A stretch of DNA of 64,000 nt from an uncultured virus (IMG/VR IMGVR_UViG_3300037427_003924) (Duplodnaviria > Heunggongvirae > Uroviricota > Caudoviricetes), in IMG/VR virus record IMGVR_UViG_3300037427_003924; one strand, written 5' to 3'. Shown piece after piece: positions 29,101 to 61,462 of this stretch. Numbering within the stretch: position 1 is the first letter of the stretch; each line of letters begins with the position of its first letter. Under the pieces are notes generated by a model, which worked only from the letters and a program-made list of their open reading frames with translations, was not told the origin of the DNA and did not search any database. Both the position numbers and the translations under genes were made by a program.

Positions 29101-32100
29101 CCATTAACATAAAGTTGAGCGTTGTTGTTATTGGTTGTTGCAGTATCATTAATGAGGACTTTGCCATCAGTTTTAAATCTAACTTTTTCGCTATCTTCAT
29201 GGACAAAAATAAAATCTGATGTGTTACCCGAAATAAATTTATTACCAATAAACCATTCAGCAGTGCTTGTCCTAAATTGTATTAAAGACATAGCCCCCGC
29301 CGTGGTACTGTTGTTCTGTAACCTTAATCCATTACCGCCCCAATTGCCACTGCTGCCACCGCTAAAACTAGTATCGTTATTAGTAAATCTAACGTCCAGA
29401 TCATAGTAAGGGACATCTGCTCCGATGCCCACTTTGCCTCCTTTCAAAAAAGAAGCCCCGTTAGGGTTAAGTTGAACATTGGTTGCGCCGCCACCTGACG
29501 TTCCTTCGCTTATCAATAATTGCTTGTCCGCCCCCGCTTTGTAAATGTGAACAGTATTAGCTACTGTAACTATAGATCCGTTATCCTGTATCGTAGAATC
29601 TCCTTGAGCACTTGTTCCAGTCCATTTGGAAATATAGTTTGTCGAACCCGTTCCAGTAACAGTTCCTCCGCCGGGAGCCGTGCCGTTAGATGCCGCAGTT
29701 AACCTGCCTTGAGCATTGACAGTTATTGCAGCGTAAGTGTAAGACCCGGGAGTAACTTCAGTATCCTTAAGAGCCGGAGCAGCATCACTACGCATGAAAG
29801 TCGTGGCTGTACCGTTAGTAGCCGCTCCAGAAATTACCGCGGTAGGGTTCGCGCCTACAGGAAGTGCGTTAGTTAGAAATTGACCCGTTGCTATTAGGTT
29901 CGTTACGTTGGTAGCGACACCAGCCGTGTTCGTATCGACAAACGCACCGGTTGCGATCAGGTTCGTCGTGTTACTGGCGATGTCCGTAGCGTTGGTAACG
30001 ATACCCGCCGCGTTCGTAGTTCCCGTTGACGCTATTAGATTCGTTAACGTTTGACCCGTTGTAATCAAGTCACCGCTTAACAAATCGATGACGTGACCGG
30101 TAGGATTTAAATCCGTATGAGCCTCGGCAATACCGGAAACGATAGCTATTTCGGAAGTCAAATACGTACCCGTTGCGACTAGGTTCGATGCGTTGGTCGC
30201 AATATTTGTTACATTAGTTGCGACACCAGCCGTGTTTGTATCGATAAACACGCCAGTGGCAATTAGGTTCGTCGTGTTACTGGCGATGTTAGTTGCGTTG
30301 GTAGCGACACCAGCCGTGTTCGTATCGACGAACACGCCAGTTGCGACTAGGTTCGCTGCGTTAGTAGCGACACCAGCCGTGTTCGTATCGACGAACACGC
30401 CAGTTGCGACTAGGTTCGCTGCGTTAGTAGCGACACCAGCCGTGTTCGTATCGACGAACACGCCAGTTGCGACTAGGTTCGCTGCGTTAGTAGCGACACC
30501 AGCCGTGTTCGTATCGACGAACACGCCAGTGGCAATTAGGTTCGTCGTGTTACTGGCGATGTTAGTTGCGTTGGTAGCGACACCAGCCGTGTTCGTATCG
30601 ACGAACACGCCAGTTGCGACTAGGTTCGCTGCGTTAGTAGCGACACCAGCCGTGTTCGTATCGACGAACACGCCAGTTGCGACTAGGTTCGCTGCGGTTG
30701 CGTAATAAGCTGCGTGCTGACCATCTAACAAATCAGCGTTAAGGTTGGTTACTACTGTATTACTAGTTACCTCTAATGGAGCAGTGCCCTGAGCCACGGT
30801 AGACTTGAGTACAGTAGCTGACGCTGTACCACCCACGGTAATAGCAGATGCAGTTTCCGTTATTATAGAGTCAGTTATAGCGCTTGTACCCGACCACTTC
30901 GTGATCTTCCCCGCGGTACCGGTTCCAGTTACAGTTCCACTTCCATTAGTTTCCCATGCAATTCCTCCTGCTCCGTCAGTCGTCAGAACCTGACCGTCAG
31001 TTCCGCTGCCTCCGTTGATTTTTAACTTCGCGCTCTTTATATCTACAACGCCATCAGACTGAATCCGCATCCATTCAGTAACAGCCGTTCCGTTATTAGT
31101 TGTTAAAAACGCTAGATACCCATTGACCGCAGTATCGCTATTAGACTGAACTCCACCCCGAACTTCAGAGTGAACTATATTAGCAGTACCATCGTTGTCT
31201 TTCCCCATGAATTGAAGGTATCCCAATGCTGCATCATCAGCGGGAGAAGCGTTGTTATTATATAGCTGTAATGCTAATGCATTGTCGGTTCGTTCAAATT
31301 TAATAGCGTCTCCAACGACATGGAGTTTCTGTGCTGGCGCAGTAGTACCGATGCCGACTTTACCGTCCGGGAGAAAAGTCACTCTATTCGCGTTATTTGC
31401 GTAATTGTAGATAGACAACTTGTCGGTTCCCGCGTAATCGTGAACAACAGCCCACTTGGCACTTCCATTTTGAGCAAAAGTAAGATAAGAATCCTTAGCT
31501 GCCCCTGCGTCAATTTTGACACTTGCGTCTGTTGCGTCTGAAGACTTGATGAGAACCTGTGGATTGCTCCCTTCAACGTGTAAAAGTTTTGATGGAACAG
31601 TAGTCCCAATGCCGACTTTGCCGTCTGCTTTAACCACGACTCTTGTTGTAGAATCTTCTATCAATTCAAGAATATTCCCAGAGCCGTCTTGGTCTACAAT
31701 TAATGCTGTCTGGTCATCGTCTGGGTGAGTTTGCCTCACTATCATTACCGGCAGCGAGGTAGAACTCGCTGGAAGATTTCTATAAAATTGAAAAGTGGCA
31801 TAACTATCGTAACCTAACCTCGCCCATGCTCCATCATGGGTAACATCCAACTTTGCAGCAGGCGCTGTAGTCCCGATGCCGACCTTATCTCCCGTAATAG
31901 TTATTCGAGATGCAAGAGAGCCATTATTTTGAGTATAAAGTTTTAAAGCGCCGCCTTCCGAACCACTTACTACTGAAGTAATTTCAGCTTCTATATCAGC
32001 ATAGATTACCTTATTTTCTTCAAACCCTGTATCGGTCCCATTATTTTTTCCTCTGAAACGTATAATACCTAAGTCGTCTGAATTTGCAGGACTAGGAGAG

Positions 32101-34664
32101 TTACGGTAGAGAACCAAATCCGGGGCGTCAGCGGCATTCGTAGCGGTAGACTCTACTAATAAAGAATCCCCTGCAGTGGTACCAGCGTAAACATGTAACT
32201 CCGCTTGAGGGGAAGCCGTAGAGATTCCTACTTTTAGCGCGTTATCATAGATAATCCCCGAAGTTAAAGTATCTTTATCAGACCAACGAGCTACATAATT
32301 AGCGACTCCTGAACCATCAATTGCGCCTGTAGTTACTAAACCAGAAACAATAGCTATTTCGTCAGTAAGGTATTGACCAGTTTGTATAAGGTTTCCACTA
32401 ATATCATCAACTATCGCTCCAGTAGCGATAAGATTAGTACTAACAGTATTAATGCTAGTTGTTAAAGTTTGCCCCGTCGTAATTAAATTGCCGCTTATAT
32501 CATCTACGATAGCGCCCGTAGCAACTAAATTAGTAGAAACGGTATTGATATTAGTCGTTAACGTTTGCCCCGTCGTGATTAAGTTGCCGCTAATGTCGTC
32601 AATTATCGCCCCAGTTAAGATTAGATTATTGGTTAATGTTTGGCCCGTGGTTATGAGATTACCGCTAATGTCATCTACAATCGCTCCAGTAGCTATAAGA
32701 TTAGATGTGTTGCTTGTAATTTGAGTCTGTAAAGTTTGACCGGTTGTGATCAAGTTTCCACTTACGTCGTCTACGATAGCACCCGTAGCAATCAAATTCG
32801 TGGCGACTGTATTAATATTAGTCGTTAACGTCTGGCCCGTTGTAATTAAATTACCGCTTACGTCATCAAGAATCGCTCCTGTAGCAATTAAGGCACCGCT
32901 TAGAGCTGCAAAATCTTCAGCAGAGCCTCCTGTCGCCAATCCAGAAACTATAGCTATCTCATCGGTAAGGTATTGACCAGTTTGGATAAGGTTCGATGCA
33001 TTAGTAGCGATGTTTGTCACGTTGGCGGCTATACCAACCGTGTTTGTATCCACGAAGACACCAGTTGCAATTAAGCTAGTTGTTAATGTCTGCCCTGTCG
33101 TAATTAAGTTTCCACTTACATCATCAACTATCGCACCCGTAGCAATTAGGTTACCGCTAATAGCGTCAACTATCGCTCCTGTTGCGACTAGATTTCCACT
33201 TAACCCATCGAAATCTCCTGAAGCTGCCCAAACGGGACCATTATCATTACTAGTAAGAACGTAGCCCTTGTCGCCAGTAGAGTTGGTTTGATCATAAAGC
33301 TTTCCACTAATTATTGCGCTTCCATTTACGTGAAGATCGTGGTAAGCAGTAGCAGTCCCAAGCCCTACATTGCCATCAGCATTAAAATACGCATCGGTTC
33401 CTATTTTTGTTGTTTTGTAACCGGGAGCGTCCCTGTCGTAGGAGTAAAGATACCCTATTTCTGTCCCGGTGTTATAAAGCATTTCAATCCCCACCCCCGC
33501 ACTAACGGAAGTGGCGTGTGTGGAACGTATTACTCCGCTAGCTTCAAGTAGAGATGTAGGATTAGTTGTACCTACTCCGACATTACCGCCTTGCGCGACA
33601 ACCATTCTAACATCAGAATTAGTTTTAAACTGTAGATTATCAGTAGAGTTTTCGTTATAGACAACCCATTTTCTGATAGCGCCTTCTGCCCATTCATAAC
33701 CGGCATTAGAATCAGCCCCAGCAGTAACTCTAATTCTGGGTTCTGACGCAGCGTAAACTTCTAAATTTTTTGCTGGCGTAGTAGTCCCGATACCGACATA
33801 ACCATTGTTAAATAGAAAATGATTGTAAGGAAATACCCCTGCGTTAACCCTTTTAAATTCTACTCCCGAAGCCCCATCATTCTGAGCTGCGAAAAAAGTG
33901 CCTACCGCATTTGGCCCTACAACCTGCAATTTTGCCCCCGGATTATTAGTCCCGATGCCGACAGCGCCCGCTTGATTAATTGAAACATTAGCGGCTCCTG
34001 CACTGGTGAAAGTTAATGTGTCAGCCGTACCACCTCCAACTTGAGTATCGTTTTTAATTCGCCATTTCGTCGCACCTGCCGCTTCCAATCTCAATGTAGC
34101 GTCAGTAGTGGCGCTGGAAGAATTTAATGTAGCGTCGCCATAAACCTCCAAAAGATATTGAGGGTTATCCGTCCCTATTCCTACATCACCATTATCAAAA
34201 ATAGTTCCCGAAGTTAAAGTATCTTCGTCAGACCAACGAGCTACATAGTTTGCAACGCCGGAACCTCCTACACCCGAGAGAACTGATTCAATACTTTTCC
34301 AATTAACACCAGTTTGCCCTTCGTTAGTTAGAACCATTCCTCCTTCGCCGAGGGTATTATTCGAATCGTAAATATTTCCGGAGATACCTAACTTGTTAAC
34401 ATTGAGACGGTTACCGTCTGTGAAAGTTAAATTAGCACTGCCCCCAAACGAACTAGAACTATTAAACTGAACAGAATTTAAAGGAGTAGCTGGATTTGTG
34501 CCTCCACCCCCTCCTCCTGCCAACTCCTCCCATGATCCATTCCTTAAAACTTTTTGGGCGAGGTCGCCCGTGTTGATAAGATACGCGCCGTCGAGTACTC
34601 CCGTAGGCTCAGCATCGCTACCACCTATTACAAATCTATCTCCTGCGTATCTTGTTACTGCCAT
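26130..34664 (-). CDS. Giant tail fibre, 2844 aa, with C-terminal peptidase S74-type intramolecular chaperone
   Basis: C-terminal SSITLKENV...IRPVKY...IGLIAEE...FPELV...VNY...KEL; VGIGT modules; coiled-coil repeats. Confidence 0.88.
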   Translation of the reverse strand: MAVTRYAGDRFVIGGSDAEPTGVLDGAYLINTGDLAQKVLRNGSWEELAGGGGGGTNPATPLNSVQFNSSSSFGGSANLTFTDGNRLNVNKLGISGNIYDSNNTLGEGGMVLTNEGQTGVNWKSIESVLSGVGGSGVANYVARWSDEDTLTSGTIFDNGDVGIGTDNPQYLLEVYGDATLNSSSATTDATLRLEAAGATKWRIKNDTQVGGGTADTLTFTSAGAANVSINQAGAVGIGTNNPGAKLQVVGPNAVGTFFAAQNDGASGVEFKRVNAGVFPYNHFLFNNGYVGIGTTTPAKNLEVYAASEPRIRVTAGADSNAGYEWAEGAIRKWVVYNENSTDNLQFKTNSDVRMVVAQGGNVGVGTTNPTSLLEASGVIRSTHATSVSAGVGIEMLYNTGTEIGYLYSYDRDAPGYKTTKIGTDAYFNADGNVGLGTATAYHDLHVNGSAIISGKLYDQTNSTGDKGYVLTSNDNGPVWAASGDFDGLSGNLVATGAIVDAISGNLIATGAIVDDVSGNLITTGQTLTTSLIATGVFVDTNTVGIAANVTNIATNASNLIQTGQYLTDEIAIVSGLATGGSAEDFAALSGALIATGAILDDVSGNLITTGQTLTTNINTVATNLIATGAIVDDVSGNLITTGQTLQTQITSNTSNLIATGAIVDDISGNLITTGQTLTNNLILTGAIIDDISGNLITTGQTLTTNINTVSTNLVATGAIVDDISGNLITTGQTLTTSINTVSTNLIATGAIVDDISGNLIQTGQYLTDEIAIVSGLVTTGAIDGSGVANYVARWSDKDTLTSGIIYDNALKVGISTASPQAELHVYAGTTAGDSLLVESTATNAADAPDLVLYRNSPSPANSDDLGIIRFRGKNNGTDTGFEENKVIYADIEAEITSVVSGSEGGALKLYTQNNGSLASRITITGDKVGIGTTAPAAKLDVTHDGAWARLGYDSYATFQFYRNLPASSTSLPVMIVRQTHPDDDQTALIVDQDGSGNILELIEDSTTRVVVKADGKVGIGTTVPSKLLHVEGSNPQVLIKSSDATDASVKIDAGAAKDSYLTFAQNGSAKWAVVHDYAGTDKLSIYNYANNANRVTFLPDGKVGIGTTAPAQKLHVVGDAIKFERTDNALALQLYNNNASPADDAALGYLQFMGKDNDGTANIVHSEVRGGVQSNSDTAVNGYLAFLTTNNGTAVTEWMRIQSDGVVDIKSAKLKINGGSGTDGQVLTTDGAGGIAWETNGSGTVTGTGTAGKITKWSGTSAITDSIITETASAITVGGTASATVLKSTVAQGTAPLEVTSNTVVTNLNADLLDGQHAAYYATAANLVATGVFVDTNTAGVATNAANLVATGVFVDTNTAGVATNATNIASNTTNLIATGVFVDTNTAGVATNAANLVATGVFVDTNTAGVATNAANLVATGVFVDTNTAGVATNAANLVATGVFVDTNTAGVATNATNIASNTTNLIATGVFIDTNTAGVATNVTNIATNASNLVATGTYLTSEIAIVSGIAEAHTDLNPTGHVIDLLSGDLITTGQTLTNLIASTGTTNAAGIVTNATDIASNTTNLIATGAFVDTNTAGVATNVTNLIATGQFLTNALPVGANPTAVISGAATNGTATTFMRSDAAPALKDTEVTPGSYTYAAITVNAQGRLTAASNGTAPGGGTVTGTGSTNYISKWTGTSAQGDSTIQDNGSIVTVANTVHIYKAGADKQLLISEGTSGGGATNVQLNPNGASFLKGGKVGIGADVPYYDLDVRFTNNDTSFSGGSSGNWGGNGLRLQNNSTTAGAMSLIQFRTSTAEWFIGNKFISGNTSDFIFVHEDSEKVRFKTDGKVLINDTATTNNNNAQLYVNGPVYGSEFDLPSGGALDWANGDARIVEGLVSNYSLSLQNYNGVSAMVTTMFLKSDGNVGIGTTVPSAKLHIESDGSHDEGAEIFLKHANNNSTDIVSTILFGNNAGGVAMIQSGTTGANNTGYISFFTDNAGTSSEKVRIIGDGNVGIGAVAPGAKLEVAGGNIRLANDQYVEWGGTKAKIGGSNTGDYVFFSTDNTDRMRIISNGNVGIGINAPGYKLEVTGSQTGDWISRIHNTATTSTPSGLIVKTDYSSTTATGGYVLGCVAGSDYRFVVLNDGNVGVGALTPNAKFEVQGTNRSTAFSASNGATWHDTIIANPNSTAGSAVGIFLQTSGYHSNGGTGIAAIDAGGDYSAHLVFITRPNGAVAEERMRITDDGKVGIGTTDPGQLLEVGNDGNSDYALIGPTKIGGGMGHGDYAGFSHRSMGGTSNYCLLQYSDGNTYLNAASGKTVHLRVNNSNILKVAGSLATFDVGALFNGYIELDAGLKDKDGSFGTNGYVLTTDGSGDVTWAASPGAGSVDGTGTAGKMTKWSDTDTVTDSSFLSESGTTLTNTATLTNFSTSSATITLSNYGRLGVGTNSASSPFISYLGNDSTWGGDNALIRAYNAGNRGAKGHASGSNLFRADFSDGCGMIIDKDGGVGIGTDEPSSELQINGSHTAVDENAPYGTNSVHINLKNTSDTDGNLAGVLFEGAVSAAYMGGMYMEMENHSSFYSKLHFATRNGASSFGSKMTLDKAGNVGIGTTTPATKLEVKSGNIRLTDAYVIEWGGTKARIGGSNSGDFLKFYTDDTVRMYVKTDGNVGIGTTNPSRLLHVNGGSDYNARFTSASTRSGIVIDKPGTTTIMGSALVLADETFKLGTASYYHVIMTQAGVTSLLYQGSTKIATTSAGVTVTGTLTETSSITLKENVETYTPSLDIINKIRPVKYNRKTNKDKKEIGLIAEELAELFPELVEKDEKGNPSSVNYSRAVTVLLGGFKELYKEIEELKKRI
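30190..30697 (-). repeat. Near-identical 63/84-nt in-frame tandem repeats
   Basis: Units AANLVATGVFVDTNTAGVATN (21 aa), some extended by 7 aa; several are identical at DNA level. Confidence 0.92.
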
Positions 34665-40117: not shown

Positions 40118-41950
40118 CTAAGCTATCATCTTGGGAGTAAATGTGTGATTAATTTGCTCCAGCTTAGTATTTTTAAGATCATTATAGCCCTTAACCGCCC
40201 AGTTGCCTAACATTAAAGTAGTATAATTATCCTTACGAGCGCGGTTAGCTGAAGTGCTCCTTTTTAAATGCTGAGGAAGATCAAAAGTTTGAGTGCCTTT
40301 AGCAGTAGTTTTTACCTCTACTAACGCGCATTGCTTTCTGGTTTGATATATAATGTCATCCTGAAATTCGATTAAATCTCCCTTGTTTTCATAAGGCATT
40401 AATTTTATGGGTACAGCTTGTGCAGAGACCTTGTCAAAAAAACTTCCGCATGCCGCAGTACGAGACGCAAACCATATTCTCTTATGGTCAATGGAAGCTT
40501 GCAAATACTCATTAGCTTCACGGAGAAAAGTTGTAGAAAACAACTGTTTAAAGCAAATTACATGCTCTTTTTTGTTATACTGACTTTTAGCTTTTAGTAG
40601 CATCTGCTGGTAATCCACCCCTGTTTTATCACTGTTAAAATCAAAAAATTTCAAATTTATCCTAGAGTCTCGGAAAAGCTCGGACTCATTAGCGCTATCG
40701 ATAAACTGGTAGCCCGCATTATCAATGATGATTAAAGAAAAATTGAAATGAGTTACTAAATAATGAAGATATTTGATGTGATCTTTTAAATCTCCTCCTG
40801 CAACTGCATAAGCGTGAACTAAGGTAGACTCATTTCCCTTTTCCTCATCCAGCTCTAAGACGGACATAGCAAAGTAATCTGAACTCGGGCTATTACTAAA
40901 ACTAGGGTCAATTCCTAAAATATACTCTTTATCCTTTTCTCCCTTGGTTAAAGTGTGCTGTTTCTCCCCATCAGGGATGGTGCAGTCATGCATTTTCTTG
41001 GCGCTGAAATAACTATCACTCCCATCAGTAAACTGCGCACAGTATTCCCGTTGAAAAGAAGAATTAGAGGACCCTCCCGATCTGGCTTCTTCGATAACAG
41101 TGCTATCTATCATGTCAGAAGGAATAGAATCAAAAGCCATTTGAGAGATAAAGTAGTTAGACTGCTGCATCTCTTCGGAGTAGATATTGTTCATCCATTC
41201 TTTATAAGTCTTAAAAAGATTCTCAAAACTAAAACTCGCAGAAGACAGAGCGATCATTTTTGAATTGTTCTCAAACTTGATTCTATCCTTTTCCTGCATT
41301 TGTCCTTTTTTAATTAAGTCGTCCTCCATTTCCCTTATCTTAATTCTTTCTGCCATATCTTGGGGAGCTACCAAAAATGGCATTAGCACTGTCTTAATAG
41401 TATCCTCCGGTAATAATAAAAACTCGTCGAGTACCAAAATATTAGCGCGGAAACCACGAATCTTTTCTCCGCTTAAAGGTATAGCGGTAATAGTCCCTTC
41501 GTTTATTTTCCATTCAAATTGATCATTACGTTTAGATTTAGCGCCAAAAGCATGAGCTAACATCTGAGCTTCTTTCGATTCAACTATCTTTTCTAAATTG
41601 TTAAAGATAAACCGCGCAGTACGAAAAGTCGGCCCAGCTATAAGAATTTTTGTTCGAGGCTCGAATACGCATTGCAAAAAACAATAAACGGCAGCGATGA
41701 AACTTTTGCCACATCCACGACCCCAGACACACATGCTAAAGTTGCGGTTAAAAAAAGCCTTAAGAGTTATCTCTTGGTAGAGGGCCAGTTTAATCCCCGA
41801 AAGTAATTCAGTAGTAAAACCCAAGTTAGAACGCATAAACTTAGCTAAAGTAATCTTAGCCTGTCTATCTGGAAGCTCCCCTTTTAAATCAAGAAACTCT
41901 TCATTTAAGTTGGGGATGGTTTTTTTATATTTATCGGGGCAATACCACAT
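40118..41950 (-). CDS. Terminase large subunit
   Basis: Walker A GRGCGKS, RGFRAN-ILVLDE Walker B, FQREYCAQF, nuclease ILGIDP. Confidence 0.88.
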   Translation of the reverse strand: MWYCPDKYKKTIPNLNEEFLDLKGELPDRQAKITLAKFMRSNLGFTTELLSGIKLALYQEITLKAFFNRNFSMCVWGRGCGKSFIAAVYCFLQCVFEPRTKILIAGPTFRTARFIFNNLEKIVESKEAQMLAHAFGAKSKRNDQFEWKINEGTITAIPLSGEKIRGFRANILVLDEFLLLPEDTIKTVLMPFLVAPQDMAERIKIREMEDDLIKKGQMQEKDRIKFENNSKMIALSSASFSFENLFKTYKEWMNNIYSEEMQQSNYFISQMAFDSIPSDMIDSTVIEEARSGGSSNSSFQREYCAQFTDGSDSYFSAKKMHDCTIPDGEKQHTLTKGEKDKEYILGIDPSFSNSPSSDYFAMSVLELDEEKGNESTLVHAYAVAGGDLKDHIKYLHYLVTHFNFSLIIIDNAGYQFIDSANESELFRDSRINLKFFDFNSDKTGVDYQQMLLKAKSQYNKKEHVICFKQLFSTTFLREANEYLQASIDHKRIWFASRTAACGSFFDKVSAQAVPIKLMPYENKGDLIEFQDDIIYQTRKQCALVEVKTTAKGTQTFDLPQHLKRSTSANRARKDNYTTLMLGNWAVKGYNDLKNTKLEQINHTFTPKMIA

Positions 41951-42890: not shown

Positions 42891-43992
42891 TGAGAACTTC
42901 CTCCTCACTTATCCCCATTATTCTTGATTTGATCTCTTCCATAGAGGTGAGCCTTTCTATCTCGGTTGAGACGTTTTTCTTTCTAATCTCTGCGATCTTA
43001 ATCATTTTATTTCGAGACTCTTCATCTTTCCAAAGTTCCACTAAGTTTAATATAGAAGCAGATTCCTGCATGATCTTACTCATGCGTTGACTTCTTTTTT
43101 CTTTAAGCTCGTTAAGTAATTTAGTTTGGCGATTTACGCATTGGTTGTATTCAGTTTGTGCCGTGTTAATAGCTTCAACCAAACTCATGGCCATTCGTCT
43201 TCCTTCAGTATCTTCTGCATTTTGATCAAGAAGTTGTTGTAGCCTTTCTACGCGTCTTTGAATATTAGAAGCGATCACCACTTCCGCTGCTAAAACTATA
43301 TACTGATCTACCTCTTCTTGAGAAAGATCGGATTTATCCCATGTATAACGAACGAAACTACTTTCAAATAATTCTCGATCTGTCTCAATAGTATAAGTGC
43401 TAATCTGATGAAGAAAGCGAAAAGTATGCATGTAGCCAATAAGAGTAGAAAGGTTCCTTTTTATTTTGGTGGTGACTTTCTCTTTATTAATTCCATTGTA
43501 AACGTATTTATTTACCCGAACTAACGCTCGACTCTCAGACTTCGGAGGTTGATAACCACCTTCGACAGGGACATCTTCATTACTGTCGGAATACTTTACT
43601 TTATTAGGAACCGTATTAAGGAAATCTACCGTGACCTTATACCTTTGATCTAAAGCGGATATTTTAGGATCATCAAAAATCAATCGCGCCATTTCCATCG
43701 GTTTCATCGCGCTACAATTATTTGAGACAAATTCTTTTTGTTCGTCGTTTAGCTCGATCTTTTCTTTGGGGTAATATTTATGAGAGACTTTCGCTTCTAG
43801 ACTTTTTTCAGCTAAAAACTTTTTTACAGCTCTTCCGTATTTTGATCTTCCGTCTCTTTGTTTTTCTGGGATATCTGGAAATACTAACTCTATCAATTGG
43901 GATATATAAGGGGGGTCCTCAGGGCGGTTATTCCACTCGGTAAGAATTGCTAACTGTTGATCTTCGTTAAGTCCTATATTCTTGGAGCTCAT
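42883..43992 (-). CDS. Hypothetical protein with coiled-coil C-terminus
   Basis: 369 aa, overlapping both neighbours. Confidence 0.7.
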   Translation of the reverse strand: MSSKNIGLNEDQQLAILTEWNNRPEDPPYISQLIELVFPDIPEKQRDGRSKYGRAVKKFLAEKSLEAKVSHKYYPKEKIELNDEQKEFVSNNCSAMKPMEMARLIFDDPKISALDQRYKVTVDFLNTVPNKVKYSDSNEDVPVEGGYQPPKSESRALVRVNKYVYNGINKEKVTTKIKRNLSTLIGYMHTFRFLHQISTYTIETDRELFESSFVRYTWDKSDLSQEEVDQYIVLAAEVVIASNIQRRVERLQQLLDQNAEDTEGRRMAMSLVEAINTAQTEYNQCVNRQTKLLNELKEKRSQRMSKIMQESASILNLVELWKDEESRNKMIKIAEIRKKNVSTEIERLTSMEEIKSRIMGISEEEVLNG

Positions 43993-44675
43993 ATTATTTC
44001 TATCTCTCCTTCTTTTAGCATTTTTTTAACTTTTTGAATAATTGACTTTTTGACATTTTTAATCTGTTTATATCCCGGAACCCGATTCTTTTCATTTGTC
44101 TTATACCCCATTAAAGATGCAGCGTCTTCCTCTGACATGTTGTCGATATATAAAGCTTTATAGATTTTCCATTCAGAAGACTTGAGGGTCTCTTTCATTT
44201 TATCGTTAATCTTCTTCATTAGAGAAATAATGTCCAAACCCGTATACTCGGTACTATTTATCTCCGTAGCATGTTGATTGATAGAAACCGGCAATTTAGC
44301 ATCATAGGCTTGTTTTTTTGTCCTTGTCCAATTAGCATATAAAGGACACGTGTCACATTGCTTACCGTAAATGTAACATAAGTCACCAGCTTCGGCTGCG
44401 GCACACTTGAGGCAGGGGCGGCAATAATTTCCGTAATTGTTTCGGATTAAGTTTTTTATTTGATTGGATATAATCCGGTTTATCCAAGGGTTTAATGGTT
44501 TCTTAGTATCGTATAGATGCCACTTCTTAAAAATGTGAATTCTTAAAATTTGAGAAACATCATCAAAATCCATCCAAGATAACGCAGTAAGGTTCCATTT
44601 GGACCTTCTCTTTTTAATTTCTACATCTATCTGTTCTATGAAATCTTCAAATTTGGGTTTTTTAGGTCTGGGCAT
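43989..44675 (-). CDS. Phage sigma70/ECF-like sigma factor with Cys-rich insertion
   Basis: Region 2-like DFDDVSQ...YDTKKPLNPWINRIISNQIKNLIR; region 4 HTH-like MSEEDAASLMGY; CxxCxxC...CxxC between them. Confidence 0.65.
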   Translation of the reverse strand: MPRPKKPKFEDFIEQIDVEIKKRRSKWNLTALSWMDFDDVSQILRIHIFKKWHLYDTKKPLNPWINRIISNQIKNLIRNNYGNYCRPCLKCAAAEAGDLCYIYGKQCDTCPLYANWTRTKKQAYDAKLPVSINQHATEINSTEYTGLDIISLMKKINDKMKETLKSSEWKIYKALYIDNMSEEDAASLMGYKTNEKNRVPGYKQIKNVKKSIIQKVKKMLKEGEIEII

Positions 44676-45057
44676 CGGATCGTCGCGATGATCCGGCTTC
44701 TCTCTGTAGGTCGTTAACAATAGACTCTTTAGAGTAAGATGGATCCACTTCCCTCCTGTAGTTATCCTTCTCTCCGTTAGCGGTTCCCGCAAGTTGGTCA
44801 AGAGGCACACTACTAAAACTTTGAGACACTTGTATATCAACATCTAAACCCTCAATAGAGGGGATATACTCTTCCTCATATTCCTCTTCTTCCTCCATTA
44901 CCACAGGGGAGCTTACAACTGGAGCCTGAGCTTTAAATACTCTTCTTGGAGAATTAGCACTAATCTGCGCAAAAGGGTCCCCACAAGAGCAACAAAACTG
45001 AGGCTTCTTTAAAGAATACTCTGTTCCCGACCCACAATTCGTGCAATAAACCTTCAT
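44662..45057 (-). CDS. Zinc-ribbon protein
   Basis: YCTNCG...FCCSCG. Confidence 0.65.
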   Translation of the reverse strand: MKVYCTNCGSGTEYSLKKPQFCCSCGDPFAQISANSPRRVFKAQAPVVSSPVVMEEEEEYEEEYIPSIEGLDVDIQVSQSFSSVPLDQLAGTANGEKDNYRREVDPSYSKESIVNDLQREAGSSRRSDAQT

Positions 45058-52359: not shown

Positions 52360-52404
52360 GTTAGTAAATATTACACATTAAAAATTAAAAATACTATTTT
52401 TTTT

Positions 52405-52674
52405 TCAAAAAGGACTCTTGTTATGAGAGCTTTCGGCGCTGGATGGTTTATTCTTGCCATAATAAGACTTTTTGTAGGTTTTGACTTTGTCTGGATTGCT
52501 TTTTTGCCATTCCGTCACCTTTTCAATGATTTTGTTTTTGTTTTTTTCGTAGTATTTCTTCGCGGTCTGGTTATCACATTCTTTACAATAATACTTCAAC
52601 CCATCCTTGGTACTACTTTGCTTTCTAAAAGCTCCAAGAGCTTTTGCCTCTTTGCATTTGGTACATATTTTCAT
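52405..52674 (-). CDS. Zn-binding protein resembling the N-terminus of HNH/endoVII homing nucleases, no nuclease domain
   Basis: MKICTKCKE.K....F......KDGL..YCKEC. Confidence 0.6.
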   Translation of the reverse strand: MKICTKCKEAKALGAFRKQSSTKDGLKYYCKECDNQTAKKYYEKNKNKIIEKVTEWQKSNPDKVKTYKKSYYGKNKPSSAESSHNKSPF

Positions 52675-53275: not shown

Positions 53276-53551
53276 TTAGTAGTTGTCTTTGTGGAATCTG
53301 CCCTTTGGTGTCCTGTCTTCAAAACACTTTTCAATCTCAACAACTCGGTGAATGTCGCCGTTGGTCGTTGTGCTGTTAACCGCTTCCGCGTGGTACTGGT
53401 CGATCATCTCCTGCTCGGTTGTGCCTAGCGGGTAGGTGTTACCAAGTACGCTGTTGACGCTTGCGAGGTAGTGGTTGCCCGTGTAGTTCGGGTTGCGCTC
53501 CACCTTGAATGTGACGTTTAAGAAGTTTATGTATTCTGTTGTATCTCTCAT
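53276..53551 (-). CDS. Early hypothetical protein
   Basis: TTGCAA-17-TATACT-10-ATGAGAGA. Confidence 0.7.
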   Translation of the reverse strand: MRDTTEYINFLNVTFKVERNPNYTGNHYLASVNSVLGNTYPLGTTEQEMIDQYHAEAVNSTTTNGDIHRVVEIEKCFEDRTPKGRFHKDNY

Positions 53552-53694
53552 AACTGGGAATAGTATAGCTAAAGACTCATAACTTTGCAAGCTTTTTCTT
53601 TAACTTTCTTACCTTTTTTTTCTGACGTTTAATCTCTTGCTGGAGTGATAGGATGACTGGACAATCTCCACTAAACCTACCCTTGTGATCGACA

Positions 53695-53922
53695 TCAAGC
53701 ATCGATCCCCGCCTTGTCCTCGAGCCACTCAAGTGACTCGCTGAATTCAATCTCGGTGAGTTTGTTCTGGATCTCGGTCAGCTTCTTCTCGGCAATAGCG
53801 ATCCGCTCTTGGATAGCTTCCTTGCTTACAAAGGTATCGGCTGCCAATACTTGCAACGCTCCGCGAATGCTCGCGATCTCGCCGCCCTGCTCTCTGATGT
53901 GTGCTTGTGTTGTTTCTCTCAT
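53695..53922 (-). CDS. Early coiled-coil protein
   Basis: TTGACA-17-TACTAT-10-ATGAGAGA. Confidence 0.7.
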   Translation of the reverse strand: MRETTQAHIREQGGEIASIRGALQVLAADTFVSKEAIQERIAIAEKKLTEIQNKLTEIEFSESLEWLEDKAGIDA

Positions 53923-53957
53923 AACTTGGTTAATAGTATCAGTTTAATCGGTTGGTG

Positions 53958-54110
53958 TCAACCCTTTTTATTGGCTTTTATTCTAGCGTTAGCCAGTGCA
54001 TTCAGTGGTGTGTAACCGTTCCATTCGTCCAGACTGATCTCCTTGACTGTCCGTACTCCATTGACCCAAGGCCCCATGACCTTAACCGTCTTGATGTTCT
54101 TATCTCTCAT
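53958..54110 (-). CDS. Early 50-aa protein (not in ORF track)
   Basis: TTGCAA-17-CATACT-10-ATGAGAGA; MRDKNIKTVKVMGPW... Confidence 0.65.
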   Translation of the reverse strand: MRDKNIKTVKVMGPWVNGVRTVKEISLDEWNGYTPLNALANARIKANKKG

Positions 54111-54167
54111 AACTGGAAATAGTATGCCTTAAATCTCAGTTGATTGCAAGCCCTAACTCAAACTTTT

Positions 54168-55433: not shown

Positions 55434-55685
55434 TCAATCATAAAAATAATTTTTATGAATTTTTTCGACACAGCCTTGGTTGTCGGCATTAAGGGGATCA
55501 GCGGGATTGATCCCTAAACTCCTTGCTACACGCATTCTTGCGCTTGATGAAGGCATCTTTCTTTCCTCGATAGCGTGATTAATGAAGGTGCTGCGGAGGG
55601 CTCCCTTAATCTGCCTACTCTGCTCCCTTGCTCGTTGTGCAAGCGGTATGTTCCGTTTTTTTCCTTTCCTGCTTTTCTTTCTCAT
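55434..55685 (-). CDS. Basic early protein
   Basis: TTGCAA-18-TAGTAT-10-ATGAGAAA. Confidence 0.65.
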   Translation of the reverse strand: MRKKSRKGKKRNIPLAQRAREQSRQIKGALRSTFINHAIEERKMPSSSARMRVARSLGINPADPLNADNQGCVEKIHKNYFYD

Positions 55686-55895
55686 AACGAAGATGATACT
55701 ACCCTAAAAACTGATAAGATTGCAACCCCTAAATGCAAAAAAAATATTTTTTTTTATATTCTTAAAATTTACTCCATGGCATAAGCCTTGCTACTTAAAA
55801 TTCCAAGCCTTACTACCATTGTACCTCATCCAGCCGCCAAAGTCAAGCGTAAAAATGTTTTTTTCTTAAAAAAGTTTTTTTATTATTCTATGTCG

Positions 55896-55972: not shown

Positions 55973-56098
55973 CGTTTCTGAAAGGCTGTTTTCTGTGCAG
56001 GTCTCGTGCCAACTCTCATAAAAAATAAAAATAAAAAAAATGAAAAAACTCACACTTTAGGCTTGTAATTTTCTGTGGTTTTGCTATAATTTTTTCAG

Positions 56099-56323
56099 AT
56101 GAGAGAGATGAAATACGAGTCAGACATCCTGACAAACCAGTGGAAAGAGTTCTTCAACGAGGTCGCAGCGAAATGCGAATACTGGGAACTAGGTTTCGGC
56201 GATATCAACGCCGACAAGGAAAGCGAAATAGTTCGCGAATGCTTTGTGGATAAATACACTGTACAGCACACGGTGGACGCATGGCACGAATACGTGGTAG
56301 AGGAAATGGTCGACAGCCTGTAA
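56099..56323 (+). CDS. Acidic early protein
   Basis: TTGTAA-16-TATAAT-8-ATGAGAGA. Confidence 0.7.
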   Translation: MREMKYESDILTNQWKEFFNEVAAKCEYWELGFGDINADKESEIVRECFVDKYTVQHTVDAWHEYVVEEMVDSL

Positions 56324-56369
56324 AAAGGTGTTGACTTCGTTAAATAAATAACCTATAATATTTTTTGTT

Positions 56370-56582
56370 ATGAGAAAGTTTGTAATTACTTATCGGCCAG
56401 ATGTCCACGAAGGGCATCGGAATCTAGAAGGGGATCTCCACGCTTATGTCGTCGAGGTCGAGGAACAGTTCGCTAACAGCGAAGAAAAGGACAACTGTGC
56501 TGGCATCACCGCCAAGTGCGTTGAGAGTGGAATGTGGAAACGATTCCGCTGGGATAGGATCACCAACATGGCCGCGGCCTAG
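56370..56582 (+). CDS. Early protein, WYL/SH3-like C-terminus
   Basis: TTGACT-17-TATAAT-10-ATG; WKRFRWDRI. Confidence 0.6.
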   Translation: MRKFVITYRPDVHEGHRNLEGDLHAYVVEVEEQFANSEEKDNCAGITAKCVESGMWKRFRWDRITNMAAA

Positions 56583-56630
56583 GTGATTGAGCTTGACCTT
56601 CAGTTAAAATCTGATATAATTATTCCTGTT

Positions 56631-56918
56631 ATGAGAGACCATTTAATAAAAACCGTAATCGTTCGCGAAGATAAAAATAATAATTGGCATATAATCGCCA
56701 AGCGCGGAGAAAGAGTTCTAGAAGAAACAAGGCCAGAGCCGAATTTCACTAAGGTAATGGAAAGAGCGCGGTTTGATCACTGCCTCTTTGATGACGAGCC
56801 AACGCAGCCAACAATTGAACGCTTCGACGATTCTAATACAGTCGAGAAAGGTTTGACTAGATTAGGCCAATGGCTCGAGAAGTGTTTCGATAAAATGGCA
56901 AATAAAGTGACTTTTTAA
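56631..56918 (+). CDS. Early hypothetical protein
   Basis: TTGACC-16-TATAAT-10-ATGAGAGA. Confidence 0.7.
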   Translation: MRDHLIKTVIVREDKNNNWHIIAKRGERVLEETRPEPNFTKVMERARFDHCLFDDEPTQPTIERFDDSNTVEKGLTRLGQWLEKCFDKMANKVTF

Positions 56919-56957
56919 GTTGACAAATCTAAAAATTCTGATATACTAATTTCCGTT

Positions 56958-57194
56958 ATGAGGGATAGAAGAAAGAAAGCAGCAGAGGTAATCGACTTAA
57001 CCCGTTTAGATATGGCCGGAGTCGAGGGTACATTGAAGTTCATTAGCGAAAGCAATGGGGATATCCAAGAGTTAAAAGAGATGGTTAACTCACAAAGGTT
57101 AATTCTTCAGAATCTACGCAAAGGCTTAAACAAGCCAATGTTTCAAGACGGATTCGCTTCACCCCTAGGATTTGACTTACAAGACGAAGCATGA
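56958..57194 (+). CDS. Early hypothetical protein
   Basis: TTGACA-16-TATACT-10-ATGAGGGA. Confidence 0.7.
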   Translation: MRDRRKKAAEVIDLTRLDMAGVEGTLKFISESNGDIQELKEMVNSQRLILQNLRKGLNKPMFQDGFASPLGFDLQDEA

Positions 57195-58271: not shown

Positions 58272-58390
58272 CGTTTTCAAAAGTGTCATTCTAGGAGGGA
58301 TTTCATGCCAAGTGGTGTAAAAAATAAAAATAAAAAAAGTGATGTTTTAGGGTTGACTTTTTCCTAAAATCTGATAAGATAATTCCTGTT

Positions 58391-58663
58391 ATGAGAGATA
58401 TGTTTGAAAATATGTACAAGGTTCAGATCGCCAACTCTGGTGATGTCGCTGGTTTCCCGCGTTCTCACGATGGTCTTGAAAAGGCTATTATCTTGGCCTC
58501 GCGTGAGGGTACTGAGGTCACCTTTGATGGTGACGTCGTTTGGCCGGAGGAGGAGGCTCCTGACATGGATGAGTCCATGGACGGGGATCATGACTCCGCG
58601 ATGGCCAGTGCCGGTTTCGGCACGGATGAGGACTACGGTTGTTTCGGTGGCGACGAGTGGTAA
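58391..58663 (+). CDS. Highly acidic early protein
   Basis: TTGACT-16-TAAGAT-10-ATGAGAGA; DESMDGDHDSAMASAGFGTDEDYG. Confidence 0.7.
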   Translation: MRDMFENMYKVQIANSGDVAGFPRSHDGLEKAIILASREGTEVTFDGDVVWPEEEAPDMDESMDGDHDSAMASAGFGTDEDYGCFGGDEW

Positions 58664-58729
58664 AAAAAGTAAAAAAAGTGAGATTTAACTGTTGACATTT
58701 TTTTAATCTGTGATATACTGTTTTCTGTT

Positions 58730-58963
58730 ATGAGAGATATGATAAGTTGTGAAGAGGTTTTCGAGGCGGACGCGAATGCGCGTGCGGAGTTTGAGGCTGT
58801 GTGCAGTGCATGGCAGGATGAGGCCATCGCCGCGCAGGAGGTCGAGCTTGCGGCGCAAGCGGAACGCGAGGAGCGCGAGCGCGATCTGGCCATGGCCGAG
58901 GTCGAGGAGACGTGCTGGTGCAAGTTTTTCGAGTCGTGCTCCGCATGCTTCGGCAAGGCATAA
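58730..58963 (+). CDS. Acidic helical early protein
   Basis: TTGACA-16-TATACT-10-ATGAGAGA. Confidence 0.7.
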   Translation: MRDMISCEEVFEADANARAEFEAVCSAWQDEAIAAQEVELAAQAEREERERDLAMAEVEETCWCKFFESCSACFGKA

Positions 58964-59498: not shown

Positions 59499-59780
59499 TT
59501 ATTCCGAAATGGTTTGACGAATCTCTTTCATCTTCTTCTTTAGAAAAGAAACAGCCTCACAGTTTTTGGCATTAGTTTGGATGATATGCCCTAGACTGTA
59601 CTCTATCTTACGCGTGAAGTCTCTGCGTAACGCATCCAACTTATCTGCATCCGCTCGCTTTATTGCGCGAGTCTTCTTGACCGCTTTCTTCTTTTCGGCC
59701 TTTTGTTTTAAATGTTTTGTCTTCACTTTCTTTTCTTCAAATGCCTCTAGTAACTTTTCGTAATTACTTACTTTATTCAT
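59499..59780 (-). CDS. Basic hypothetical protein
   Basis: Likely ATG 59780 (MNKVSNYE...). Confidence 0.6.
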   Translation of the reverse strand: MNKVSNYEKLLEAFEEKKVKTKHLKQKAEKKKAVKKTRAIKRADADKLDALRRDFTRKIEYSLGHIIQTNAKNCEAVSFLKKKMKEIRQTISE

Positions 59781-59795
59781 ACTATTAAAATAAGA

Positions 59796-60431
59796 TGGTG
59801 GCGGGAGTATTTGTGTACCCGCACCTTTTCTGTACCCAAGAAACAAATGTTTCTGATCTACTTACTTCGGACTCACCCGCGATTTTCCTCAACCGATTGG
59901 TCTCTGTACTTCTCGCAGTCGCTGCATTATCCCCGTGGGAGGGATTATTCTGCCACACCGACCTCTCTCCGTCGAGAGAGGAAATTGATAGGTTGCCGCC
60001 GCACCACCAGCAGTAAAACGGGCGTGAGTTCGTGCCTCACAGGGGTATTTAACTCCGTCAACCTAAATGAATCGCTCTTGAGAAACTTCTCATTCTTAAC
60101 CGTTTCAAGTCGAGTTAACGACTGTCATGCTTTCAACGCGTTTATAGCTCAGAAAGACGTGATTAAGCGCATAGCCCAAGTTTTTTAGTGTTATGAGAGA
60201 GTCCTTTTGCAGGACAATCTTTAGACTGCTAAACTCAAGAGCAAATTTTCAAAGAACCTAAAAATTGTCTGGGGGTGATTAGCATTGTATTCCTACCCTA
60301 ATCTTTTAAGTCAGCCCAGCCTGACACACCATAAACATGAAACGATAATATTAAATACAACCTTCGCTGATTAACCTCCACCAGCAGGGATTATCAAATG
60401 ACAAACAATAATAAACATTCCCCGAAGGGAA
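59796..60431 (-). ncRNA. Candidate large structured non-coding RNA
   Basis: No convincing ORF; many hairpins; boxA-like GTTCTTTGAAAA; ends CCGCCACCA. Confidence 0.5.
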
Positions 60432-60442
60432 ACTAAAGTATA

Positions 60443-60688
60443 TCAGCAACGGTCTGGCAATGCAACCTTTTTCTTTTCCGTCTCCAGATTCTCAAACTTC
60501 TTGTCCATGCCTTCGTCATCCCAGTCGAAAGAAAAGTATTCATCAAATACCTTGGAGGCTATCCGTCCCTCTACGCTTTGAGTCGCTGCTTCTTTCAGCA
60601 TAAACTTCATAGCTTTGAGTCTTTTCCGCATTTCTTCAGTACCCGCTTTTGTTCGCGGCCTCAACCAATGATCATCCATTTGTTTCAT
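60443..60688 (-). CDS. Hypothetical protein
   Basis: ATGA overlap with upstream gene. Confidence 0.6.
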   Translation of the reverse strand: MKQMDDHWLRPRTKAGTEEMRKRLKAMKFMLKEAATQSVEGRIASKVFDEYFSFDWDDEGMDKKFENLETEKKKVALPDRC

Positions 60689-61326
60689 ACTTCTAATTTC
60701 GCTTCCCTTAACTGCTTATGAGTATACCGTAGTCCGGCATTCCATGCAAGCCTTTTCTTCTTCGGTTCGGGAATATAAAAAATATTAAAGTGAGGCCCGA
60801 TGGCAGTTTTATCCCGAAGGATTACCCTGCTAGACTTGTAGATAGGCTTCTTGCTTATATCCTCTACAAAAGTCTTATACTTATAAGGATTGTAATATGC
60901 ACCTTTAAATTCTTCTCCCGACTCTGGAATGCAATTCTCGCACCAAGAATACTCTCCTTCGTTACGGCAGTTGCAGCCCCAAACCTTTTTCAAGTTACCA
61001 TCTTCCCCTTTCTCAAAACGATAGGCTTGGTGGTCTCCTTCGTTTACCCATGTGCCAATAACATAAGCGTGAACGTTTTTGCGCTTCTCACGGACAACAC
61101 GTTGACGACCATTCTCGTTAACGTGAAACTTGGCATTCTTTAGCTCGACTCGGTGACTATGGCAATATAATCTCCCCGTGCTAGTATCAACTACAGAAAG
61201 GCAATCCTTCTGAAGATTGTAGTAAACTTTCACCCGATCAGGTGCAACAGGGCAACCCATGTAAGTCTTGCGGGTTTCTGCATCGGCCCAGCTAATGAAT
61301 CCTTTTGGTTCTTCTCTTTCCCTCAT
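60685..61326 (-). CDS. Phage hypothetical protein
   Basis: TTGACT-17-TATACT-10-ATGAGGGA; VYYNL...GRQRVVREKRKNVHAYV.G. Confidence 0.75.
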   Translation of the reverse strand: MREREEPKGFISWADAETRKTYMGCPVAPDRVKVYYNLQKDCLSVVDTSTGRLYCHSHRVELKNAKFHVNENGRQRVVREKRKNVHAYVIGTWVNEGDHQAYRFEKGEDGNLKKVWGCNCRNEGEYSWCENCIPESGEEFKGAYYNPYKYKTFVEDISKKPIYKSSRVILRDKTAIGPHFNIFYIPEPKKKRLAWNAGLRYTHKQLREAKLEV

Positions 61327-61388
61327 AACTTCAAATAGTATAAGTTAAATTGTTTCTAGAGTCAACTATAAAAATAACTTTTTTAAAT

Positions 61389-61462
61389 TGGACGCGAGGG
61401 AGGGAATCGAACCCTCAATTGTTCTTTTGCAGAGAACCGTCTTGCCGTTTGACCACCCCGCG
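61389..61462 (-). tRNA. tRNA-Cys(GCA), CCA encoded
   Basis: Acceptor CGCGGGG/CCTCGCG, D stem GTC/GAC, anticodon GTTCT-CTGCAAA-AGAAC, T arm GAGGG-TTCGATT-CCCTC, U discriminator, 74 nt. Confidence 0.95.

Follow-up and report, generated by a model that had tools for sequence, protein, structure and literature searches.

In an uncultured virus of the class Caudoviricetes, a non-coding tract carries on its minus strand the exact antisense of a word that spans the start codon of many early genes. This raises the question of whether the tract encodes an RNA that acts in trans on the whole set of early starts, as the initial annotation proposed, or whether the likeness has another origin. This study investigated the tract within a stretch of 64,000 nucleotides of the viral genome (hereafter, the window) and compared it with related contigs and metagenome loci. 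The window carries a terminase gene (40118-41950), a portal-like gene, tail fibre genes, and two giant open reading frames (ORFs) of >4789 codons and 2844 codons. Megablast and blastn searches of the region against 50,697 phage records returned no match, and tblastn with the terminase against deposited phages returned only matches below 30% identity. Two records in IMG/VR, G001 (100% identity) and G002, represent the same phage, and the contigs of the clade relatives extend up to 170 kb.

The early start word and its copy in a non-coding tract

The window contains seven exact copies of GTTATGAGAGA. Six of them lie at the early starts 53551, 53922, 54110, 56631, 58391, and 58730, where our motif search confirmed the exact complement of the anti-motif, and the seventh is the site at 60190. 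Allowing at most one mismatch, we found 13 matches against an expectation of 1.06 (standard deviation 0.93); the largest count in 100 shuffles of the window was 4, and none of the shuffles reached 13. Ten motif copies are situated 7 nt downstream of sigma-70-type promoters resembling TTGACA-N16/17-TATACT, and each of them opens an ORF of 50-213 codons. The promoter-linked copies occur on either strand between 52 and 62 kb, with A-rich tracts upstream of the promoters, and the start word downstream of the early promoter is GUUAUGAGAGA.

On the basis of motif and promoter, the candidate targets on the plus strand are the start at 58727..58737, which reads GTTATGAGAGA, and those at 56628-56638, 58388-58398, 56955-56965, 56367-56377, and 52420-52430; the candidates on the minus strand are at 53544-53554, 53915-53925, 54103-54113, 61319-61329, and 55678-55688. 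At the starts 56958 and 61326 the sequence is GAGGGA, which would pair with the anti-motif when a G-U pair is allowed, and at 55685 and 56370 it is GAGAAA, which leaves one mismatch; both points had been made in the initial annotation and proved correct.

We then considered the word across the clade. In 14 contigs, including the window, 77 of the 84 copies of GTTATGAG[AG]GA were linked to a promoter with a score of at least 8 of 12, and the -10 element ended 7 nt before the G in nearly all of the promoter-linked copies. From this spacing we infer that early transcription should start at or next to the G of GTTATG, leaving a leader of approximately 3 nt. A promoter scan that did not use the motif revealed GTTATG also at most near-leaderless starts, and the word is nearly universal across the clade. 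The bases that follow GTTATG differ by lineage (GAGAGA, GAGCAA, GACACA, or GGGAAA), and the early cassettes are shuffled and inverted among relatives. If the predicted transcription start holds, the early genes of this clade would have strong sigma-70-type promoters and almost leaderless mRNAs with a fixed GUUAUG start. The word may then combine three roles in optimized leaderless cassettes, those of transcription start, start codon, and initially transcribed sequence, which would account for the Met-Arg beginnings of the encoded proteins. The suggestion that the antisense tract itself explains these Met-Arg starts had to be abandoned, because the start motif is conserved in phages that do not carry the tract, namely in seven of nine related contigs.

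The copy at 60190 was examined on both strands. Read directly, the minus strand from 60215 to 60178 shows the hairpin, the anti-motif, and the A-rich stretch in the order previously described (GTCCTGCAAAAGGAC-TCTCTCATAAC-AC-TAAAAAAC). The plus-strand copy lacks a promoter, as had been noted: its promoter score of 5 of 12 equals the background (mode 5-6 of 12 at 5000 random window positions), and it opens only a 22-codon ORF (60193..60261, plus strand). This ORF is shifted out of frame by a 2-nt indel in the related contig L186, and it is anywhere between 4 and 31 codons long in relatives and in variants of the tract; for these reasons it is judged to be non-coding. The flanking genes at 60443-60688, 60685-61326, and 59499-59846 all lie on the minus strand, in agreement with the earlier reading. 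Between 60443, where coding on the minus strand ends, and the vicinity of 59780, where it begins again, the sequence is non-coding. A test for a decayed cassette at 60190 revealed neither a promoter remnant nor a homologous ORF in the window, and the promoter score is also 5 of 12 in L186.

Orphan copies of the motif were found in two further members of the clade. The copy in G004 was considered as a regulatory copy and rejected, because it overlaps the last codons and the stop of a 96-codon ORF and may be coding. The copy in the G003 species was rejected as an instance of the structured element described below; it lies between convergent genes, beside a 12-bp hairpin, without the element. This G003 copy occupies a position at which the window has a cassette.

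A structured RNA module on the minus strand

The anti-motif is contained in an optional insert that forms a three-way junction and extends over 60070..60246 on the minus strand, as delimited by a covariance model (R1). The element is approximately 175 nt in length and is placed upstream of a manA-like RNA. L186 carries it with 93% identity over 193 nt. In the contigs L181, L179, L189, and L173, the element is absent and the flanking blocks are joined approximately 11 nt apart, and the approximately 175 nt around the site therefore represents an insert. AAAT is present on either side of the insert, and the ends of the insert are inverted repeats; these ends change by compensatory substitutions with strand-specific G-U pairs, in the manner of an RNA stem. 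L186 and the G003 species carry other small hairpin inserts at this position.

For the family search, we used a conserved 21-mer outside the element to collect 97 stretches, of which 80 became loci, from a collection of marine metagenomes. The first extraction yielded 28 distinct variants, and the covariance model was built from these. The model detected the element in half of the loci (40 of 80), among which 33 sequences were distinct, and the element was missing from the other 40. The divergent subfamily comprising L224, L243, L245, L266, and L268 was matched, although it lies outside the seed alignment. In the window, the model identified a sole copy with 174.1 bits (E = 5e-39). Among species genomes, the same 21-mer was present only once; the contig belongs to a metagenome-assembled genome labelled uncultured Enterobacterales and lacks the element, which is a weak hint at the host.

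Multiple dispersed copies, the mark looked for in a mobile-element test, were not found: across 334,247 bases from the clade, there was one copy each in the window, L186, and L292, always at the same site. Nine related contigs contain both the cassettes and this intergenic region. The element is present in the window lineage and L186 and absent from the other seven (G003, G004, L173, L178, L179, L182, and L189). Being optional to this degree, it cannot be a master switch for the whole clade, and these seven contigs show the very pattern, start motif kept and complement lacking, that the initial annotation had named as evidence against its proposal.

An Rfam 15 cmscan of positions 59700-60500, reported up to E = 10, matched no family to the element; apart from manA, it returned only three matches at chance level (E >1). 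A scan of the whole window at the Rfam gathering thresholds found only a tRNA. This is a genuine structured RNA module without an earlier description, and literature searches yielded nothing similar.

The fold was obtained with RNAalifold from the minus-strand alignment and consists of a three-way junction with 24 pairs in three helices. The closing stem P1 joins 60234..60243 (5' strand) to 60073..60082 (3' strand); 100% of its cells are paired, with CG/UA/UG exchanges at two pairs. P2 joins 60223..60230 to 60168..60177, encloses the hairpin, the anti-motif, and the A-rich run, and shows a GC-to-AU double change at one pair in a subfamily that was not used for model building. P3 joins 60162..60167 to 60095..60100, encloses variable hairpins, and has changes on both sides at four of its six pairs. 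All of these strands are given for the minus strand. Of 672 cells in the consensus pairs, 97.6% are paired, compared with 90.8% in shuffles, and none of 500 shuffles scored as high; double-sided changes occur at eight pairs, and sliding the partners by 1-3 columns lowers the pairing to 33-45%. In the alignment of all 40 matches (33 distinct), 96.4% of cells are paired and double changes occur at nine pairs; this alignment was fitted to the covariance model and thus favors it, and it includes the subfamily outside model building.

We further compared the two strands. On the minus strand, the stems comprise 552 Watson-Crick pairs, 104 G-U pairs, and 16 mismatches, whereas the same pairs on the plus strand comprise 552 Watson-Crick pairs, 1 G-U pair, and 119 mismatches, as G-U becomes A-C. 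Because the structure used for these counts was derived on the minus strand, each strand was also folded on its own. The consensus folding energies in two alignments were -46.5 and -53.6 kcal/mol for the minus strand, compared with -33.7 and -36.8 kcal/mol for the plus strand. Both the G-U asymmetry and the independent folding energies indicate that the functional molecule is the minus-strand RNA, which has the same orientation as the flanking genes and the manA-like RNA.

The manA-like RNA lies downstream of the element at 59791..59979 on the minus strand. Its match to RF01745 covers the full-length model with 46.3 bits (E 1.3e-10), and the corresponding matches in relatives score 51.9 and 40.3 bits; because the score in the window is below the gathering score of 55.2, the RNA is best called manA-like. 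The manA RNA motif (RF01745; Weinberg et al. 2010, PMC2864571) is marine and phage-borne, as is the element. Element and manA-like RNA share a non-coding leader and a strand, with the manA-like RNA directly downstream and conserved in relatives. The element is nevertheless a separate, optional 5' module outside the Rfam match, which covers 59791-59979 only.

Upstream of the element, a block at 60262..60326 (minus strand) contains a hairpin, GUCAGGCUGGGCUGAC, and a second hairpin, GAUUAG...CUAAUC; it is approximately 88-92% identical to L014 and L186, and its flanks diverge. The hairpin arms read GATTAG/CTAATC in the window, compared with GACTAG/CTAGTC in L181 and L179. This block had been considered as a promoter (TACAAT), and an RNA structure was preferred because the arms covary as a hairpin in those two contigs. 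Farther upstream, a terminator-like hairpin follows the 81-codon ORF at 60417..60433 (minus strand), where CCCCGAAGGGAAA is kept in L186, L189, and L173.

No sigma-70-like promoter of its own was found directly upstream of the element on the minus strand, and no intrinsic terminator (hairpin with T-run) was found at its 3' end, so the element would need to be cut out of a longer transcript. An early promoter is located upstream at 61365-61337, with the terminator-like hairpin (60433-60417) in between, and the element is probably transcribed together with the flanking genes in one longer early RNA. Two contigs from RNA-labelled libraries overlap the region: X2 covers 60177-60327 with no differences and X3 covers 60192-60325 with one difference; both come from one study, carry no strand information, and may reflect DNA carry-over. 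Six RNA-labelled runs contained small shares of the region, and the four that were examined consisted of low-depth contigs without strand or ends; stretches left uncovered in them are not informative.

The exposed loop and its match to early starts

The top of P2 presents, in order, a variable hairpin, UCUCUCAUAAC, AC, one variable base, AAAAAAC, UU, and the 3' strand of P2. All positions in this part refer to the minus strand. The apical hairpin GUCCU-GCAAA-AGGAC (60201..60215) beside the anti-motif is backed by covariation: variants read GTCCC/GGGAC, ATCCT/AGGAT, and CCCC/GGGG in place of GTCCT/AGGAC, and U-G wobbles arise on the minus strand only. The anti-motif UCUCUCAUAAC (60190..60200) is the exact reverse complement of GTTATGAGAGA and is unpaired in the consensus structure; it includes the conserved seed core UCAUAAC (60190-60196). 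The A-run AAAAAAC (60180..60186) lies 3' of the seed. Its columns (A61-A66, C67, and T68) are invariant in alignment A4, with unpaired probabilities of 0.7-0.96.

The variant table revealed that the full 11-mer UCUCUCAUAAC is present in 16 of the 33 distinct variants and the core UCAUAAC only in 11. Three variants, of the L222, L208, and L217 type, carry UCAUGAC, which still pairs with GUUAUGA through a G-U pair; two (L215 and L236) have lost the seed and kept the scaffold and the A-run; and one is truncated and not informative for the seed. UCAU[A/G]AC is therefore found in 30 of the 32 distinct variants that are informative, and the divergent L224/L268 subfamily is among them. Further seed types are AUCAUCAUAAC (L238 and L196) and UUAUUCAUAAC (L224 and L268), and conservation across the family is limited to the 7 nt UCAUAAC. 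Among the unpaired 7-mers of the element, the one conserved best is exactly complementary to the 7-mer that is most conserved among the early starts. In the element alignment, conservation is higher in the A-run than in the seed, and this points to a function that mRNA pairing does not explain.

In most variants, the seed core has an unpaired probability of 0.6-0.9, compared with an element mean of approximately 0.4. Burial of the seed in a stable helix had been named as grounds for discarding the antisense proposal. The consensus fold leaves the seed unpaired, whereas the variant in the window is partly sequestered: an internal look-alike of the seed-pairing target, AUGAGAAG (60086..60093), pairs with the seed in the minimum-free-energy fold and reduces its accessibility. 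Here the seed has a mean unpaired probability of 0.41; all 11 nt are open at once with a probability of 0.005, and opening them costs 3.2 kcal/mol. AUGAGAAG is limited to the lineage of the window and is not kept in other variants, and on this ground we rejected the idea that the seed and the P3-P1 linker form a conserved pseudoknot. The element thus has what is expected of a small RNA, a conserved and accessible seed complementary to target starts, with accessibility only partial in the variant of the window.

Predicted duplexes between the seed region and nine early starts had energies of -15.3 to -18.0 kcal/mol and ranked at the top of 164 ORF starts in the window; across all candidate targets, the energies were -12.4 to -18.0 kcal/mol, compared with a median of -4.8 kcal/mol for the 164 starts. 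The early starts rank first, and this ranking is not independent evidence, because it follows from the complementarity itself.

We also examined whether seed and start vary together. In the window and L186, an 11-mer seed stands alongside 11-mer starts, and the match spans 11 nt or more. In L222, the element and one promoter-linked start in its flank, the only start seen there, both read GTCATGAG. In the L238/L218 subfamily, the complement of the seed extension is GATGAT and the local starts are GACACA and GAGCAA, which do not match. L292/G005 (31 kb, approximately 20% of the genome) carries the GATGAT variant, and that part of the genome contains no GTTATG-type cassette. The GTCATGAGCG variant was not found in the viral-contig scan. 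On the plus strand, the tract reads GTTTTTT-NGT-GTTATGAGAGA and resembles the T-rich spacer and start of the early cassettes. Because of this resemblance, changes shared by element and starts may reflect descent or gene conversion rather than selection for pairing; either process could explain the likeness of seed and start and their common T-to-C change in L222.

On the basis of these findings, we tentatively propose that the loop base-pairs with the 5' ends of near-leaderless early mRNAs and controls them as an antisense RNA, the best supported of the mechanisms considered, to which we give somewhat less than an even chance. The data presented here show the element, its fold and strand, the conservation of its loop, and the complementarity; the transcription start at the G of GTTATG, transcription of the element with its neighbours, and pairing in vivo with its effect are inferences. 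The element is a module in a long non-coding leader, between the 81-codon gene and the manA-like RNA, and this leader would belong to an early transcription unit read from the promoter near 61365-61337. P1 joins the arms P2 and P3, with the top of P2 presenting UCUCUCAUAAC single-stranded and P3 carrying the variable hairpins. UCAUAAC, extended to 11 nt in this phage, would pair in vivo with GUUAUGA, the predicted 5' end and start codon of approximately a dozen near-leaderless early mRNAs. Such pairing would hide the 5'-terminal AUG from ribosomes, and early-gene translation would be damped as the early transcript builds up. The regulator would be accessory and lineage-specific rather than clade-wide. 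In a bolder form of this proposal, which we consider doubtful, the scaffolded loop would be a collective off-switch for leaderless mRNAs that masks the AUG for 70S ribosomes, with the A-run recruiting a host chaperone; as part of the early transcript, such a regulator would time early shut-off without a protein repressor.

Alternative readings and significance

Nearly as likely as antisense pairing is a reading in which the element is a real minus-strand RNA with a loop of other use, for example as a binding or cleavage site for a protein such as Hfq, S1, or RNase E or as one module of the long manA-type leader that acts in cis on the genes downstream, and in which the likeness to the start motif was inherited or kept by recombination rather than selected for pairing. 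The A-run is invariant, and of the 32 informative variants 2 have no seed and 11 keep just its 7 nt, a pattern consistent with such a use. The position of the element within a row of conserved hairpins that immediately precedes the manA-like RNA, the plus-strand resemblance to the spacer and start of early cassettes, and the optional occurrence within the clade point in the same direction. However, a loop whose 7-mer is complementary to the early starts would be unlikely without a functional or historical link, and this 7-mer has persisted even in subfamilies whose remaining sequence has diverged strongly. The loop conservation also bears on the improbable reading that the element is a selfish or neutral insertion of no benefit to the phage, moving or lost as a unit, with P1 derived from terminal inverted repeats. 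Clean presence or absence at one site, the 4-nt AAAT direct repeat on both sides, and the other small hairpin inserts at this place in L186 and the G003 species would fit an insertion. Nevertheless, about 334 kb of clade sequence yielded a single copy per genome at a constant site, the terminal repeats change by compensation with strand-specific G-U pairs, and the loop sequences are conserved.

The remaining two readings concern the plus strand, and both are more improbable still. The T-run followed by GTTATGA could be a DNA word bound by a protein that also binds the early promoters, such as a shut-off factor, causing a roadblock or titration at this locus; the same word is present at all early promoters, and orphan copies exist in the G003 species and G004. 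We consider this very unlikely, because GTTATG is offset from the T-run by 3 nt (AGT/GGT) relative to the promoters, which would break a fixed site, and because a DNA site leaves unexplained why the word falls exactly in the unpaired part of a minus-strand-specific RNA fold. The least probable origin is a decayed plus-strand early gene or the recombination scar of one. An exact motif with a short ORF and no promoter is what such decay might leave behind, early cassettes are shuffled and inverted between relatives, and the orphan of the G003 species sits at a cassette position of the window. Yet no promoter remnant accompanies the intact motif (score 5 of 12 in the window as in L186), the core persists across widely divergent sequences (30 of 32 informative variants), the ORF has a frameshift and no constant length, and the surroundings are constrained as a minus-strand RNA fold. 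Decay had been listed at the outset as a possible refutation of the antisense proposal, and it found no support here.

Antisense pairing, the reading that we prefer, has relatives among known systems. The c4 RNA of P1/P7, sar of P22, and OOP of lambda are phage antisense RNAs that block translation starts. Like them, the element is a phage RNA with an exposed segment complementary to start regions of phage mRNAs, and like c4 it would be embedded in a longer RNA from its regulatory region and lack a terminator of its own. Unlike the element, these RNAs act on one target or on two sites in one operon, with Shine-Dalgarno leaders; the element is complementary to the 5' ends of approximately a dozen separate near-leaderless mRNAs and is built on a three-way-junction scaffold. 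The cmscan of 59700-60500 revealed no sequence or Rfam relation of the element to RNAs of the c4, sar, or OOP type. The RegA protein of T4 represses many early mRNAs by recognizing a short word that includes the AUG. The logic of collective early shut-off would be similar; RegA is a protein, whereas the candidate here is an RNA loop, and no homology is implied. The element also resembles Hfq-dependent trans-acting small RNAs of Gram-negative bacteria in its conserved single-stranded seed of approximately 7 nt and in the adjoining A-rich stretch, which may bind Hfq. It differs from them in that no promoter and no hairpin with a U-tail were found, and its size and closed three-way junction are atypical. 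The literature on phage small RNAs and leaderless mRNAs, as far as it was searched here (including PMC8244752), contained no comparable case.

With 33 distinct variants, strong covariation, and clear strand asymmetry, the element represents a well-supported new structured RNA family among the non-coding RNAs of uncultured marine phages, few of which have been charted. Even if the pairing fails, the locus marks a hot spot for the gain and loss of small RNA modules beside the riboswitch candidate manA. We know of no phage precedent for RNA-based collective control of leaderless translation; if the pairing proves true, the element would be a concrete candidate for such control.

Early-gene cassettes and promoterless motif copies

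The window carries approximately 12 short early-gene cassettes on both strands between positions 52400 and 61700, each comprising an A-rich tract, the promoter TTGACA-N16/17-TATACT, a 7-nt interval and GTTATG(AGAGA), which opens an ORF of 40-213 codons. With this promoter-to-GTTATG layout, the cassettes probably yield mRNAs with almost no leader. At least 13 additional IMG/VR contigs share the design; between relatives, the order of the cassettes is reshuffled and their orientation inverted. One variant cassette (56063-56110, plus strand) carries GATGAGAGAGATG in place of GTTATGAGAGA after its promoter; this variant would still pair with most of the seed, the anti-motif of the optional structured RNA element (-11.4 kcal/mol).

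The related contigs G003 and G004 each contain one promoterless GTTATGAGAGA copy outside the element. The G003 copy (G003:C1:14176, plus strand, equivalent to 10354-10364 on the minus strand of locus L014) is flanked by convergent genes, with a 12-bp hairpin 6 nt away. The G004 copy (G004:C1:34066-34076, minus strand) overlaps the final codons and the stop codon (CTC TCA TAA) of a 96-codon ORF and is located immediately 5' of a conserved hairpin.

Other genome features

A tRNA-Cys (GCA) gene (61389-61462, minus strand) is situated a short distance upstream of the 213-codon gene's early promoter, and the corresponding region of the relatives contains one or two tRNAs. The structural region contains two giant minus-strand ORFs, one of more than 4789 codons (2-14368) and one of 2844 codons (26130-34664). 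A 284-codon protein (43989-44843) weakly matched the sigma-factor family phrog_1740 (E 1.9e-5).

manA-like RNA and possible host

The manA-like RNA (59791-59979, minus strand) matched RF01745 at 46.3 bits, which falls short of the gathering score (55.2). Relatives conserve this RNA; its 5' extension, likewise conserved, reaches approximately 60064 and includes the 21-mer GTTGACGGAGTTAAATACCCC, which was found in 97 metagenome stretches. Among 185,579 species genomes, the sole match of this 21-mer was contig L293, which belongs to a metagenome-assembled genome with the label uncultured Enterobacterales. L293 may be phage sequence that was binned with this genome; the match weakly hints at a marine gammaproteobacterium as the host.

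Hairpins and module turnover upstream of the element

Two more conserved hairpins, GUCAGGCUGGGCUGAC and GAUUAG...CUAAUC, were located upstream of the element (60262-60326, minus strand); the latter reads GACUAG/CUAGUC in relatives, and the inner of the two is absent from some of them. The hairpin GCUGG-UGGAGGUUAAU-CAGC (60366-60385, minus strand), with GGAGG within its loop, has the counterpart GUUAGU-GGAGGUCA-ACUAAC in many related loci, indicating a covarying stem around a conserved loop.

A distinct hairpin module of approximately 50 nt (GGTCGC...CTAGG-loop-CCTAG...GCGACC), the inner stem of which covaries, is inserted beside block 1, the conserved hairpin block upstream of the element, in two relatives (L186, approximately 14146-14200, and L188, of the G003 species, at the same intergenic position); the module is absent from the window. 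The intergenic spot by block 1 gains and loses small RNA modules.
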